DNA from: a virus
Lineage: Duplodnaviria; Caudoviricetes
DNA: 64,000 bases
IMG/VR virus record: IMGVR_UViG_3300026549_000895
Coordinates: 160,001 to 224,000 of that record
Strand: one strand, 5' to 3'
The position numbers and the translations under genes are program-made. How positions within the stretch are numbered: the first letter of the stretch is position 1; the number at the start of each line of letters is the position of its first letter. The notes under the pieces were generated by a model. That model made no database searches and was not told the DNA's origin. It worked only from the letters and a program-made list of their open reading frames with translations. Below, in pieces: positions 17,321 through 51,515 of the stretch.

Positions 17321-17360
17321 AAACCCCACCTTTCGGTGGGGTTTTCTTTTTTCTTTTTTA
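17321..17360 (+). terminator. Intrinsic terminator, probably bidirectional
   Basis: AAACCCCACC-TTTC-GGTGGGGTTT followed by a long T tract; lies between convergent genes. Confidence 0.85.
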
Positions 17361-23710: not shown

Positions 23711-24451
23711 TTAAGTTGGATGATTGTTATCAGTCTTCACATATTCAGATAAGAATTCATCATATTTCTTGTCAAGAATTTTGATGTAATAGTGTCCCAT
23801 CTTCCTACATTCATTTTCCATCATAGCATCTTTTCTTCTCTCAATATCCCTGAGATGTTCCATATAATTATCATTATAACCACCTTGCTTGATTTCAACA
23901 TGTAAACTCAAAGAAGGAATAAAGAAATCCGGAATGTAGAGATGTGTTGTACCATCTTTCCACTTGTACCAGAAGTCAGTTGGAGATGGAGCTATGATAT
24001 CATCCGGATCCCATTCCAATGACTTTAAGAACTTCAAGAAATCCTCTTCATAACTACCAATGATTCTGAAGGTATGTTTGTCATCCCATTTAAAGTCTTT
24101 GGCATCATGATGATTGTACAACATCTTTCGTTGCTGATCAGCTTCATTCAGAAGATGTTCTTTGCCGTATACTTTCACCATATTTGATTTGGCTTGTTTT
24201 GTATATTCTTCTTTACATTTTTCTGAACAGATTCGACCGTATTTCAGTGTCTCTTCATTGAACTTAACATTGTTCTTTTTACAAACAACACACAGTCTTC
24301 CAACCGGTTTCTTCACTAATAAAGAATATGCAAATTCCAAAGGTTCATATTCCTCTGGAACTTGGTCGTTATGCTTTTCTGCTATATGATGACAATACTT
24401 TTGTTTGTCATTAAATATTTTTGTACAGAACGGACATTTTGTATTACGCAA
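23711..24451 (-). CDS. Zinc-finger PD-(D/E)xK nuclease (TnsA-like / head-completion nuclease)
   Basis: CPFC..H....H and CVVC..CSEKC; YIPDF..VEIK. Confidence 0.7.
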   Translation of the reverse strand: MRNTKCPFCTKIFNDKQKYCHHIAEKHNDQVPEEYEPLEFAYSLLVKKPVGRLCVVCKKNNVKFNEETLKYGRICSEKCKEEYTKQAKSNMVKVYGKEHLLNEADQQRKMLYNHHDAKDFKWDDKHTFRIIGSYEEDFLKFLKSLEWDPDDIIAPSPTDFWYKWKDGTTHLYIPDFFIPSLSLHVEIKQGGYNDNYMEHLRDIERRKDAMMENECRKMGHYYIKILDKKYDEFLSEYVKTDNNHPT

Positions 24452-24603
24452 ATCATTTCACTCCTTTATCAAAATTAAATATAATAATAGTTTTATTAAA
24501 CCAAAATTACCCCAGCGTTCAACGATATTTCTTTTTTAGATATATATGATTAAAAAGAAATGGGATAAATACATTCTCAATATATAATTAATTTGAAGAA
24601 GGA

Positions 24604-24900
24604 GTGATGGTAAATATGGGGTCATTGATGTATTCGGATAATGATATTGATTCTCTTGAATATAGAATGAAAAATCATGTTCGAAGAATATCAATTAATG
24701 ATTTAAATATCTTAGGCTATGGATTAAAGCAATATATTGAACGATACAAAACATTGTTTGTTTATGATGAAGAAGAAGAAAAAATACTTAATGAATTGGA
24801 TACCATTTCCGATTTATTGATTACTCGTCAATATGATAAACTTATACATGACCCAAGATATATGATAACCACAGAAGACAACCGCGAAGATTATATTTGA
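24604..24900 (+). CDS. Hypothetical protein
   Basis: RBS AAGGAG; candidate early promoter at 24540. Confidence 0.55.
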   Translation: MMVNMGSLMYSDNDIDSLEYRMKNHVRRISINDLNILGYGLKQYIERYKTLFVYDEEEEKILNELDTISDLLITRQYDKLIHDPRYMITTEDNREDYI

Positions 24901-25127
24901 AAGGATTTGATTTTATGAAAAATAACAACCAACCCAAATTCATACATTTGACATCTACAAACGGAACTCAGTTCCGAATCAATTCATCTGAGATTGGTAT
25001 GTATGTCAAACCAGAAGGTTCAGAAAACACATCATTGTTTATGACTGGTGAGAATGGTACAAAGGTAATGGTTAAAGAAACACCAGATGAGATTGATAAG
25101 ATGTTAGGTATCAATTTCAATGTATGA
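24897..25127 (+). CDS. Small FlbD-like protein
   Basis: FIHLTSTNG..FRINSSEI..T......G.KVMVKETPDEI pattern; true start may be ATG at 24915. Confidence 0.45.
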   Translation: MKGFDFMKNNNQPKFIHLTSTNGTQFRINSSEIGMYVKPEGSENTSLFMTGENGTKVMVKETPDEIDKMLGINFNV

Positions 25128-25380
25128 TAATAATGAATACAGTAATCTCATTTATTGGGATTACTGTATTTTTTTATTTTTCTAATGAATATAACTCTTA
25201 TGTACTTCTTTTACTTCTGAACCAAAAACTTAGCAAATTTTTGGCTGTACTTGCTTTTCTTCGGGAGAAACTGACAACACAAGATTGCCAAGGCCACCAA
25301 CCTGAGATGAAAAAGAGCAAATAGAGAAAGTCAGATAAGGAATGTAACCCGAATCCGTTAATGTATGACCCCGCGCCAGC

Positions 25381-25414
25381 GGGGGAAAGGGGGAGGGGGC
25401 TATGGGGGAGGGGG
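25381..25414 (+). other. G-quadruplex-forming tract (five G5 runs)
   Basis: GGGGG AAA GGGGG A GGGGG CTAT GGGGG A GGGGG in a non-coding gap. Confidence 0.75.
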
Positions 25415-25458
25415 AATCCCTGGGAAGATTTTTATTTTTTGTAATGAAAGAATTCAAA

Positions 25459-25470
25459 AACGAGTGGATA
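25459..25470 (+). promoter_or_regulatory. Candidate late promoter AAC[AG]-N6-TA (representative copy)
   Basis: Copies upstream of structural gene runs: 24508-24519(-), 25459-25470(+), 51404-51415(-), 51429-51440(+); resembles the AR9 late promoter AACA-N6-TA. Confidence 0.35.
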
Positions 25471-25521
25471 ATTTGATTAATATACTATTATTATATTATT
25501 ATCAAAATTAAAATTTTAATT

Positions 25522-28500
25522 ATGAAAGGAATGAGTTTAATGTCAGACACAAAGTTTGTTTTTTCTGGGAACTTTGAGAAGCAAATAGATTTATTGTGTA
25601 AAGCATATGATAAATTGTATACTGCTTTGAATGGTTTGAAGAATGAAAAGTTTGGGAATTATGGTTTGTGTTGTGTTGACTATGGTTTCCGAATTATCAG
25701 ACCTTCTGATGTTGCTACTTATGTAGATTATCTTCTGAAGATGATGCAGAGTAGACAGTTGGATTTTGGCAGTCCTACTGATTTGAATGTGTTCAATGTA
25801 TCTTTTGTTAAGAAGGTACTGAAAGAGAACGGTTCTGATTCATTAGAGAAAGCAATGGAAAATGCTTGTGGTTTGAGTTGGATTAATCCTAAGAGAACGA
25901 ATCTTGATAATGTACGTAGTATGCTTGAGAGAGAATGCTTTAGGACGATGATTTATTCAAACTGGGAAATGATGAAGAGAGTTCGTAGTGATCAGTTTGA
26001 GAGTGATTTGAAACTGATTTCGGATATGGGTTTTGTTCGTACAATGAAGAACGTTGTGAATGCAATACCTGGAATCCTGAATGGAGACGATTACTTCAAG
26101 GGAATTGGTAATTCACACTTGGTGGATCTGGTTCGTGTTAATATTGAAGAAATGATTATCTTCGTATTTGCTTTGAATATTCGAACAATGATGAGCATGA
26201 AGAGATATGGCTCACCTCGTTCTTCTTATGATGTACCTTCTTCATCTCACGAGGTACTGAATTTCAATGAGAGTGTTGATGTGTCGAAATGCAGACCTGT
26301 ATTCATTGTTCTGACTGAAGGCAAGACTCCTTTGATGTCAGCTGGTATTCGTCATATTACCCATTCGAACTTCACTCATGTTTCAATTGGATTTGATCCT
26401 TCTTTGAACAAAATGTATTCTTTCGGCGGTCCTTATCAGGGTGATGAGTATTCATCTGATTCTTTCGGTTGTAGAATAGAATCAATGGGAGACGGTGTAC
26501 TGGCTGACAAATACGTCAAAGTGTTTGTTTGTTGGATATCTGCTGATTCGGTTTATAAGATGATGGAAACTTGCGAAGATTTCATCAATAACCAATCTGA
26601 TACTCGTTTCAATTGGAGTATGATTCGTAACTTCGTACTCGGTATCGATAAGGACATGGGAAGTGATAAGTATCATCAGATCTGTTCTTCTTTCGTGAAC
26701 TTGCTGTTCAAGAACGTCGGAATTCAATTGTTCGATGATAAGAATGTACCTTCGCCTGTTGACTATGAAAACATGGTTGATGATAACAAAGATAAGTTTG
26801 TTCAGATCTACTATGGTAAGGCATCGGGTTATTCCGACAAATACTTCGTGATCGCGGATAAGTTCGCAACAAAGAAGAAGTCACAACAGTTCGATGATGT
26901 AGTGACCGAGTGTTGTTTGTTGAAGACGAACAGATTCGTATTTTCCAACAAGATTCCGTATAACTGCAACTTCCGTGATATCGTGTGCAACGATATGCAT
27001 CCTCACTTCAAAGATACCAAGTCGGCTTTGATGTACATTCTCGGAAATGTTGATTCTCCAATTTGTATGCTGTTGACTGAATATGCTTCTCAACAGGCAA
27101 TGGATATACTGATGAATGGCAATGCGGTGGATTCTTCATTCTTGAAGATGATAACAAGAGTGTGTCCTTATGATTCTTCATATGTTGATCATCATGAATT
27201 CAAGAAATACACAACAACCGATACCGAGGATGACTACTATAAGAAGTGGCACAATATCGGTATGCAGACTGATCCGAACTGGCTCGACAAGATTGCATAT
27301 GGCAACAACTTTCTTGACGGTAATTACCGTCGCGATGCTATGGGCACTGGTAATTCAATGCCCATTGCGAATACACTCGATATGATCTGGAAGATGTATT
27401 CTGTGGATTCTTGCGACAATAAGACTCTTGCTGATAACATTTGCAAGATAGGTGGTTTGATGCTGAACATCATAAAGGTATATTCCCAAAACAGACTTCC
27501 CAACTGGGAATTCGTTCGTGATGTTCTGAGTGTTCTTGGTGAATTGTTGACTCGTTCAATGCTTCATTTGTATGCTAATAACACCGAAATCATTTCGCTG
27601 TCTGATACAATGGAAGATACCAATGATCCTGGTTATATGTATTCTGAAGCATTCTATATTATGGAAGCTGACGATAACAATCAACAACAACAATCCAATG
27701 GTGGTAAAGTTCAAGGTGCAACCATTGCTGGTGACACTTCTAAACCTGGTGCTGTTGGTGGTGCATTAGCCAGTGCGAAAGCCGCTGCTAAATCATTCCT
27801 TAAGTGGGTTATAAAGGCATTCGGTCATATCGTTGAAGATTTCAAAAATCGTCATGTCAATGAAATGAACGCTGTCTTGAAGGATAACGCTGAAATCAAC
27901 GATAAAATCTCTGCGGCCGTTGGAAAGGATTATACTGTAACATTGAACGGTTTCCGCAATTATGATTTCAAACCCGACGTTGTTAAGGGATTATTCTCAT
28001 CGGTTGCTGAATTCATGGATCCCAAGAGATTTGGTGATAAGGAATATTCAGCTGCAAATGTGCTTGCAGAAGCATATTCGAAAACACTTAGTCAAGCAAC
28101 AATTTCTCCGGATGAAATGAAGGATGATAAGAAGCGTGCTGAAGCATTGGTAACTTGGGCACTGCACGGAAAGTATCCTTATAAACCCGATCAGGATAAT
28201 TCGAGTAAAAGGCTTGATAATGAAACATGGAATAATATTGTTAACAGTCTGAAAGATTTCTCCAATAACCAGAAGCTTGTAGCTGACCAGTTCAAGAATG
28301 ATCTTGATAATGTCGGTAAGAAGGTTGAGGCTCAAACAACCGATGAGAAGAATTCCGCTAATGTAAATAAGGAAATTCTTACAAAACTCTCATTGGATTC
28401 TGCGGCTATTCAGACTGCATTGATGAAACAGTTCTTCAAGTTCAATTACGAGACTTATTCGAATATTGTAAACAACTTCAAGTCCAAGGGTGAGTCTTCA

Positions 28501-28614
28501 TCTTCTGATAACAACAATAATGAACAACCTAAGACGGAAGGTACTGATGAAGTTTCTGCTGATACAGGTGCTGATGCTTCTAATAACAATAATGCTCAGC
28601 CTAAGGAACAATAA
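25522..28614 (+). CDS. Large inner-head protein with an embedded permuted papain-like (NlpC/P60, YiiX/C92-type) domain
   Basis: PVFIVL..FTHVSI (His) precedes QICSSFV (Cys) and PSPVDY; flanking FNES and VVTEC sites, plus IMEA. Confidence 0.65.
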   Translation: MKGMSLMSDTKFVFSGNFEKQIDLLCKAYDKLYTALNGLKNEKFGNYGLCCVDYGFRIIRPSDVATYVDYLLKMMQSRQLDFGSPTDLNVFNVSFVKKVLKENGSDSLEKAMENACGLSWINPKRTNLDNVRSMLERECFRTMIYSNWEMMKRVRSDQFESDLKLISDMGFVRTMKNVVNAIPGILNGDDYFKGIGNSHLVDLVRVNIEEMIIFVFALNIRTMMSMKRYGSPRSSYDVPSSSHEVLNFNESVDVSKCRPVFIVLTEGKTPLMSAGIRHITHSNFTHVSIGFDPSLNKMYSFGGPYQGDEYSSDSFGCRIESMGDGVLADKYVKVFVCWISADSVYKMMETCEDFINNQSDTRFNWSMIRNFVLGIDKDMGSDKYHQICSSFVNLLFKNVGIQLFDDKNVPSPVDYENMVDDNKDKFVQIYYGKASGYSDKYFVIADKFATKKKSQQFDDVVTECCLLKTNRFVFSNKIPYNCNFRDIVCNDMHPHFKDTKSALMYILGNVDSPICMLLTEYASQQAMDILMNGNAVDSSFLKMITRVCPYDSSYVDHHEFKKYTTTDTEDDYYKKWHNIGMQTDPNWLDKIAYGNNFLDGNYRRDAMGTGNSMPIANTLDMIWKMYSVDSCDNKTLADNICKIGGLMLNIIKVYSQNRLPNWEFVRDVLSVLGELLTRSMLHLYANNTEIISLSDTMEDTNDPGYMYSEAFYIMEADDNNQQQQSNGGKVQGATIAGDTSKPGAVGGALASAKAAAKSFLKWVIKAFGHIVEDFKNRHVNEMNAVLKDNAEINDKISAAVGKDYTVTLNGFRNYDFKPDVVKGLFSSVAEFMDPKRFGDKEYSAANVLAEAYSKTLSQATISPDEMKDDKKRAEALVTWALHGKYPYKPDQDNSSKRLDNETWNNIVNSLKDFSNNQKLVADQFKNDLDNVGKKVEAQTTDEKNSANVNKEILTKLSLDSAAIQTALMKQFFKFNYETYSNIVNNFKSKGESSSSDNNNNEQPKTEGTDEVSADTGADASNNNNAQPKEQ

Positions 28615-51377: not shown

Positions 51378-51515
51378 GTATATCAATCCTTTCATCAAAT
51401 AAATATAATGTTGTTATATCCGTGGCAGAACGCCACGGTAATCTTTTGATGCAATTACAAAGGTTATTTTTGCGTCTGAATAGATAGTACATTATACAGA
51501 AAGGAAGATTAAAAG

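Follow-up and report, generated by a model that had tools for sequence, protein, structure and literature searches.

A unique G-quadruplex-competent tract upstream of the head operon of an uncultured giant phage: possible 3' module of a clade-specific non-coding cassette

Introduction

The late promoters of phage AR9 have the layout AACA-N6-T-A/G (PMC7598289, PMC5312081), and the non-virion RNA polymerase (nvRNAP) that serves them recognises promoters on the template strand and is able to initiate on single-stranded DNA (PMC7598289). The locus described here, in the genome of an uncultured giant phage, resembles the AR9 late units in that its head operon is preceded by a sequence of the same layout, AAAC-N7-TAA, with a candidate start further upstream that looks like a weaker version of it. 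The resemblance ends at a G-rich element: none of the AR9 late units is described with one adjoining, and the genome of the AR9-like phage Goe21 carries no G cluster.

A counterpart for the G-rich element itself may be sought in mitochondria. At CSB II, which belongs to the leading-strand origin, a GnAGn tract acts through a hybrid G-quadruplex (G4), and a G4 formed by the nascent RNA or by the hybrid stops transcription (PMC3488243, PMC4176368). There, as here, G runs on the non-template strand are split by a single A, with a promoter upstream, here a candidate one, and T/A-rich DNA next to them. CSB II has two runs, however, where the phage tract has five to six, and the phage has multisubunit polymerases. 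Moreover, replication skew does not support an origin at the phage locus, and conservation is limited to one subclade. The replication origins directed by ColE1 RNA II and by T4 oriF and oriG offer another comparison: their promoter, structured RNA, persistent hybrid, and easily unwound region may each have a counterpart at this locus. The T4 origins lack a G tract, however, ColE1 requires RNase H processing at a defined site, and the AT-rich region of the phage locus holds promoters.

In Neisseria, the pilE G4 and its cis-acting small RNA constitute a recombination element for antigenic variation. Like the tract considered here, the pilE element is a single intergenic G4 motif, and its formation depends on an adjoining small non-coding transcript, but no donor and recipient loci are evident in the phage. 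The tract has some wider interest. Termination signals of the non-canonical multisubunit phage polymerases are poorly known, and because G4 motifs are essentially absent from the AT-rich 240-kb genome, its one maintained extreme provides a clean natural test case in a phage.

Results

The contig (239,830 bp, 36% G+C) represents an uncultured rumen-type giant phage, and its ends overlap by 130 bp, so that the assembly closes on itself. The window, i.e., the whole stretch of 64,000 nucleotides that was analysed, comprises bases 160,001-224,000 of the contig, and coordinates below are those of the window unless they are called genomic. Its genes include an S80 (phiKZ gp175-type) prohead protease, a split RNA polymerase beta subunit, and a major head protein. 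For the polymerase fragment, the closest relatives in culture come from phiR1-37, Staphylococcus jumbo phages, and AR9-like Bacillus phages, all at about 33% identity. The G-rich element lies in a gap between a small two-gene unit and the head operon, which encodes a 1030-aa head protein, the S80 prohead protease, and the major head protein. The genes bordering the gap are:

24897..25127, + strand: ORF of 76 aa, last gene of the small two-gene unit (partner at 24604-24900)
25541..28614, + strand: head-module gene, ATG at 25541 (MSDTKF...), with AAAGGA before it

The true start of the head gene is probably this ATG, rather than the mechanical ORF start at 25522, since homologues begin at MSDTKF and AAAGGA precedes it. 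The two-gene unit is itself preceded by an early-type promoter motif near 24540. Its 76-aa ORF gave a weak, borderline match to PF06289 (FlbD), at 24.4 bits just under the cut-off of 24.7. FlbD is a flagellar protein family, which makes the match a curious one in a distant relative of the flagellum-binding PBS1/AR9 phages. Annotation of the neighbourhood placed no replication or terminase gene next to the tract, and the Terminase_6N profile found no match anywhere in the 239,830-bp genome. The main switch in gene orientation lies about 700 bp from the tract, genes from 72 to 184 kb of the genome being mostly on the minus strand and those from 185 to 240 kb mostly on the plus strand.

An earlier note, made from the sequence alone, had drawn attention to five runs of five G's in this gap. 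The runs are present exactly as described, G5-AAA-G5-A-G5-CTAT-G5-A-G5 at 25381-25414, and are followed by a shorter one:

25369..25384, + strand: GC-clamp hairpin H3, CCCCGC-GCCA-GCGGGG, whose 3' arm uses the first G run
25381..25424, + strand: G tract, with G5 at 25381-85, 25389-93, 25395-99, 25404-08, and 25410-14, and G3 at 25422-25424

The tract had been taken for the only one of its kind in the window, and so it is: no other part of the window has even three G5 runs spaced 1-7 nt apart, and none of 100 dinucleotide shuffles contained such a cluster. Its singularity extends to the genome, for the motif of four runs of three or more G's with loops of 1-7 nt (G3+N1-7 x4), sought on both strands of all 239,830 bp, occurs once, in the tract. 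G4Hunter peaks there at 3.0, and the sole other genomic segment reaching 1.5 is one marginal site at 1.52. With five G5 runs and loops of 3/1/4/1, the tract falls within the canonical class of G4-forming sequences (at least four runs of at least three G's, loops of 1-7 nt).

The earlier note had further proposed that the first G run may pair in a hairpin instead, so that hairpin and G4 would act as a switch. The hairpin is real, but four runs stay free when it forms, and hairpin and G4 can coexist. The G4-aware fold of ViennaRNA places a G4 adjoining H3, with five layers in the window (runs 2-5, predicted loops 1/4/1) and four layers in the lineage of a relative (L108, introduced below). Since this fold yields both elements as one module in both lineages, they need not compete, and a switch becomes unnecessary. 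H3 itself is one of about 40 C4-5/G4-5 hairpins in the genome, placed at gene ends. It is not an intrinsic terminator, as G runs follow it and the T run comes 44 nt later without a proper hairpin before it. The tract also contains a homopurine mirror repeat at 25387-25416 (AA-G5-A-G5 / CTAT / G5-A-G5-AA), with arms of 13 nt and a spacer of 4 nt, within the range described for H-DNA (homopurine mirror arms of about 10 nt or more, short spacer).

Relatives were found by a homologue search with the downstream 1030-aa protein, which led to two metagenome contigs, L107 and L108. Four further homologues (P0002-P0005) have 61-69% identity. In L107 (94% protein identity) the tract is identical. In L108 (67% protein identity, and 78% DNA identity over 15 kb) the same position reads G5-AGC-G6-A-G4-CTT-G4-A-G6-AGA-G3, so that its runs measure 5/6/4/4/6/3, and the stem of the GC hairpin is retained with a 3-nt loop. 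Thus over about 22% DNA divergence run lengths went from 5-5-5-5-5 to 5-6-4-4-6, with at least four runs of at least four G's, loops of 1/3-4/1, and the hairpin all kept. The mirror layout is 5-1-5/5-1-5 in the window and 6-1-4/4-1-6 in L108, whose arms are perfect over 11 nt (17 nt with one mismatch) about a 3-nt spacer, which allows H-DNA, so far as sequence can tell, in both lineages. By our estimate, run lengths would be symmetric by chance in roughly one outcome in four to one in nine. G4Hunter scores are 3.0 in the window and L107 and 3.16 in L108. The concern that the tract might be an assembly or poly-G artefact can be set aside, because it is identical in L107 and present in altered form in L108, the three assemblies being independent. 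We consider it, on these comparisons, a genuine, unique, and evolutionarily retained G4-competent sequence that is G-rich on the sense strand.

Conservation at the syntenic position, which the earlier note had asked about, holds for L107 and L108 but not for relatives at 34-40% protein identity (L104-L106, L109-L111). These have kept the downstream gene and its promoter and have no G cluster; only about 180 bp separate a divergent upstream gene from the homologous head gene. Scans of the whole records of three cultured phages, AR9-like Goe21, phiR1-37, and Staphylococcus SA1, found no comparable G cluster, neither conserved 20-mers nor the hairpin+G pattern had a true match in IMG/VR or GTDB genomes, and GenBank phages yielded no match to the locus by either blastn or tblastn. 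Chance hits of the element searches to a GC-rich phage and to a Pirellulaceae coding region were discarded, as were more than 100 hits of a fixed-spacing G5 scan of IMG/VR, mostly at contig ends and taken as poly-G artefacts. Judged by the records searched, then, the element is a novelty of one subclade.

Immediately beyond the tract, G+C drops from 74.6% (25366-25424) to 13.5% (25425-25520), as expected from the very AT-rich DNA that had been remarked on there. This DNA can be read as the promoter region of the head operon, because two promoter motifs are located in it:

25458..25471, + strand: late promoter AAAC-GAGTGGA-TAA of the head operon, by motif and conservation (AR9-type, non-virion RNA polymerase)
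25492..25501, + strand: promoter-like motif of early type, TATATTATTA, located after the late promoter and before the head-gene start codon

The head operon may therefore have two promoter classes. The upstream sequence has the marks of AR9-type promoters (AAC at -11 to -9, T at -1, A/G at +1). In the genome, AAC-N7-TAA occurs 12 times, compared with 36-196 times at other spacings, and AAC-N7-TAG likewise 12 times, compared with 28-75. In all, the 240 kb hold 24 copies of AAC-N7-TA[A/G] where several hundred would be expected, and it is only with the 7-nt spacing that the motif is depleted. Of the 24, nine are intergenic, usually with a GC-rich N7 and with T next, and eight of these nine lie 27-75 nt upstream of gene starts (the ninth, at genome position 52100, is about 1.1 kb from one). 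From its distribution, AAC-N7-TA[A/G] looks like the late promoter of this phage, stray copies of which would be strongly selected against. If so, AAC-N7-TAA and its genome-wide avoidance could provide a simple map of late transcription units in such uncultured phages. The phiKZ-type TATG and the AR9 form AACA-N6-T[A/G] are neither depleted nor enriched in the genome. ATACTAT was considered as a general promoter motif and rejected, its 70 copies being mostly coding.

Copies of AAC-N7-TA[A/G] in the window include:

24507-24519, - strand
25458-25471, + strand (head operon)
51429-51441, + strand

The minus-strand copy, AAC-GCTGGGG-TAA, is a strong one and lies 55 nt from the start of a zinc-finger/HNH-type endonuclease gene (23711-24451, minus strand). 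L107 and L108 both keep the head-operon copy, and distant relatives have it as GAAC-N7-TAA. The C of the AAAC in this copy follows the last long G run at a distance of 47 nt in the window and L108 lineages alike, and the spacer, though 48% identical, has no indel.

On the other side of the tract, the gap has the following parts, together with one that lies between the tract and the late promoter:

25135..25189, + strand: terminator T1, a 15-16-bp hairpin (25135-25171) and T tail
25193..25205, + strand: candidate weak late-type start AAC-TCTTATG-TAC, putative +1 at A25204, by motif match
25196..25284, + strand: conserved 5' domain, by fold and comparison with L108
25285..25368, + strand: purine-rich central region, 54-59% identical to L108 and poorly conserved
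25429..25448, + strand: T-rich stretch, second copy of a 20-nt repeat, by repeat search

The further inverted repeats mentioned in the earlier note proved to be real, CCAAAAA/TTTTTGG at 25222-25228/25238-25244 and a repeat of 15-16 bp at 25135-25171. The latter, a GC hairpin followed by what would be a run of U, constitutes an intrinsic terminator-like site after the 76-aa ORF. Its tail (25170-25189) recurs with 85% identity over 20 nt, as a direct repeat, at 25429-25448, and the two copies bracket about 260 bp. Since the terminator-tail repeat brackets a non-coding insert, the arrangement suggests a cassette gained by recombination at T-rich terminator tails. The second copy is possibly the 3' end of a non-coding RNA or else a leftover terminator tail.

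The candidate start just inside T1 matches the late core save at +2, where it lacks the A common to nine strong late promoters. Its motif, AAC-N7-TAC, is about three-fold depleted, with 39 copies genome-wide compared with 103-167 at other spacings. L108 has TAC-N7-TAC at the aligned 5' edge (T for the first A); thus AC-N7-TAC, a motif avoided by the genome, stands at this edge in the window, L107, and L108.

The 89-nt 5' domain is the best-conserved part of the gap and folds alike in the window and L108 lineages, into a closing stem (25196-25203/25277-25284), a long stem (25207-25221/25260-25274), and hairpin H1 (25222-25228/25238-25244), with a 17-nt direct repeat inside (25201-25217/25246-25262). 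In the structure comparison of this domain 94.9% of cells are paired. Two compensatory pair changes separate it from L108 (C-G to A-U, and A-U to C-G), a level of covariation that 57 of 500 shuffles reached and that comes from two independent lineages only and is thus weak. Fold energies and z-scores of the gap were not better than those of shuffles. RNAalifold on three sequences gave a long-range structure that was unconvincing and was rejected. The central region holds short conserved islands, AGTCAGA and GTAACCCGAA. By block, the gap is 48-88% identical between the window and L108, not above the genomic background of 78%. Between the window and L107, zero changes fall in 25316-25462 and eight in 25174-25315. 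The best match of the gap to an Rfam covariance model scored 13-19 bits, against cut-offs of 48-50.

We judge the gap to be non-coding because its indels relative to the relatives are not multiples of three, breaking every frame, because the ATG at 25365 lacks a Shine-Dalgarno sequence, and because the ORFs of the gap had no hit in Pfam.

The earlier note had called for the GC skew of the whole genome. The raw cumulative curve has its genome minimum at 184-185 kb, near the tract. Sense-strand skew, however, is about +0.025 for plus-strand genes and about -0.03 for minus-strand genes on both sides of the locus, and the cumulative curve corrected for gene orientation has no extremum there. Since the minimum is lost once the coding-strand term is removed, coding-strand bias explains it fully, and skew adds nothing beyond gene orientation.

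Discussion

The best explanation of the locus, though one that we put forward tentatively, is that a non-coding segment is transcribed as an autonomous unit and that its transcript ends in a hairpin+G4 module. The segment would be a cassette peculiar to this clade, about 240-260 bp long (roughly 25190-25448) and with the G tract as its 3' module, that had been inserted after the small early operon's terminator and ahead of the late promoter that serves the head operon. Starting from the anatomy, the uniqueness of the tract, its conserved layout, the neighbouring promoters, and the cassette-like boundaries, we infer transcription, G4 formation, and a role for the RNA. In outline, rightward transcription of the cassette would begin at a weak late-type start within it (AAC-N7-TA, +1 near 25204), and the transcript would fold its conserved 5' domain. 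As polymerase crossed the G-rich sense strand, the nascent RNA would form H3 and then a very stable parallel G4 from runs 2-5 (loops 1/3-4/1), and perhaps also a G-rich RNA:DNA hybrid. Hairpin and G4 together would stall or end transcription in the U-rich stretch beyond. The product would be an RNA of about 230 nt with an exonuclease-resistant 3' end, and cassette transcription would not run on into the late promoter, which lies 47 nt downstream.

Several observations point to such a cassette. The tract is non-random and unique and is present in three independent assemblies. G4 layout and hairpin were kept while run lengths and loops changed, and against L107 the invariant stretch of 25316-25462 contrasts with the eight differences in 25174-25315. 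The gap is non-coding, a 20-nt repeat stands on both sides of it, and distant relatives hold the late promoter block only. The avoided AC-N7-TAC occurs at the 5' edge in all three sequences, two pair changes in the 5' domain are compensatory, and H3 is of the GC-clamp type found at about 40 gene ends of the phage. Other observations speak against the cassette. An RNA starting at 25204 would leave out the 5' arm of the covarying closing stem. The candidate start is without the +2 A, and L108 has T in place of its first A. H3 lacks a U tract, and the T run lacks a proper hairpin. Fold z-scores are no better than those of shuffles, the covariation comes from two independent lineages, conservation of the gap does not exceed background, and Rfam offers no match. 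G4-driven termination is, to our knowledge, unproven for multisubunit phage polymerases. If the tract does end or stabilise a non-coding RNA, then it would exemplify a hairpin+G4 3' module for transcripts of these non-canonical enzymes.

Perhaps instead the tract acts at the level of DNA. A non-B device, either a G4 that primes from an R-loop (a counterpart of CSB II or of herpesvirus lytic origins) or a G4/H-DNA 'door-stop' that opens the template strand at the head promoter, seems rather doubtful to us. It would supply, for AR9/phiKZ-type phages, a first defined origin in the one case and a novel mode of promoter control in the other. Under the first form, a transcription-primed origin, RNA would remain hybridised to the C-rich template with the help of a G4 on the displaced strand, and its 3' end would prime rightward synthesis into the AT-rich DNA. 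The order of parts is appropriate (a candidate start with a weak motif match, a structured 5' region, G runs on the non-template strand, and then DNA of 13.5% G+C), and an element found once per genome, about 700 bp from the main orientation switch and at the raw skew minimum, is where one might look for an origin. But the minimum vanishes after orientation correction, sense-strand skew being equal on both sides; the element is absent from the 34-40% relatives, whose local gene order is equal, and from three cultured relatives; it sits in the head module rather than beside replication genes; the conserved late and early-type promoter motifs already explain the AT-rich DNA downstream; and the 20-nt repeat gives the whole the look of a cassette-like insert. 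For these reasons we rate an origin at the tract as unlikely. The second form, in which G4 and/or purine-mirror H-DNA tunes the late promoter of the head operon in cis, supposes that extrusion under negative supercoiling holds the upstream duplex open beside a readily melted spacer, aiding a polymerase that reads the template strand, or else insulates the promoter against transcription from upstream. It would take advantage of the ability of AR9 nvRNAP to read that strand and to start on single-stranded DNA (PMC7598289), and it would account for the 47-nt spacing to AAAC, fixed in both lineages without an indel despite 48% identity, for the mirror symmetry kept while run lengths changed, and for a tract exclusive to the lineage with a co-directional early operon ahead of the late operon. 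Yet no G tract accompanies any of the other eight intergenic late promoters, distant relatives run the promoter without one, the symmetry has an estimated chance of one in four to one in nine, an indel-free stretch of 47 nt is unremarkable, and some 190 nt of conserved sequence upstream would be left unexplained, so that this too, though a serious alternative, is unlikely, and a little harder to credit than the origin. A pac site recognised by terminase, for which we see very little chance, would suit an element found once per genome where the head module begins, and the 130-bp overlap of contig ends fits a permuted or terminally redundant genome. No terminase gene was detected nearby, however, Terminase_6N matches nowhere in the genome, the tract is not conserved past the subclade, and the PBS1/AR9 relatives are generalised transducers with loose headful packaging. 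Both proposals of the earlier note, origin and packaging signal, are thus weakened: the unique G4 tract, the AT-rich DNA after it, and its place just upstream of the head operon stand, but skew, narrow conservation, and the absence of an adjoining replication or terminase gene tell against them.

A cluster of G runs might also have grown by slippage within a decaying insert, with no function at all. Run lengths do drift, and conservation is at genomic background, but G4 motifs are otherwise absent from 240 kb, and these slippage-prone runs are identical in the window and L107 and G4-competent in L108, which makes this improbable. Less credible than any other reading is a translated micro-ORF, whether 25365-25511 (48 aa, Gly-rich) or 25402-25476 (24 codons, with GGAGG within the G runs before it). 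The shorter frame has the same length and stop in L108, with a TTG start, but its conserved ends are the G runs and the late promoter, its middle is unconserved, and it has no family hit; the longer lacks a ribosome-binding site and does not persist in L108. Another role, that of an RNA anti-CRISPR in which H3, as the mimic of a solitary repeat, traps a Cas6-type protein, has a precedent in Racrs of the solitary-repeat kind (PMC10651486), and all 16 nt of H3, CCCCGCGCCAGCGGGG, agree with the stem-loop of the type I-E repeat of enterobacteria; this string appears in CRISPR papers on E. coli, Salmonella, and Klebsiella. The likeness is confined to the stem-loop and does not extend to the whole repeat, Rfam gave no CRISPR-DR hit, the loop differs in L108, and the G runs would be unexplained. 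The flanks of H3 differ from those of the type I-E repeat. Since H3 belongs to a family of about 40 generic hairpins, the 16-nt identity is most likely incidental, and we regard the anti-CRISPR role as highly improbable. A CsrA sponge, or mimicry of Shine-Dalgarno or anti-Shine-Dalgarno sequences, based on GGA/GGAGG (CCUCC on the minus strand), was considered and dropped, there being no minus-strand promoter or terminator and a G4 being expected to hide the motifs. The non-coding cassette ending in hairpin and G4 thus remains the reading that we prefer.

Apart from H3, some hairpins at gene ends have the form AACCCC(A/G)CC-loop-GG(T/C)GGGGTT (window 17324-17345; genome 57-78 and 39179-39200). 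They closely resemble the direct-repeat stem-loop of Ruminococcus flavefaciens Cas13d, and the core string of that repeat, CCCCTACCAACTGGTCGGGG, is given in CasRx papers. They could be repeat mimics, or the resemblance could be mere coincidence.
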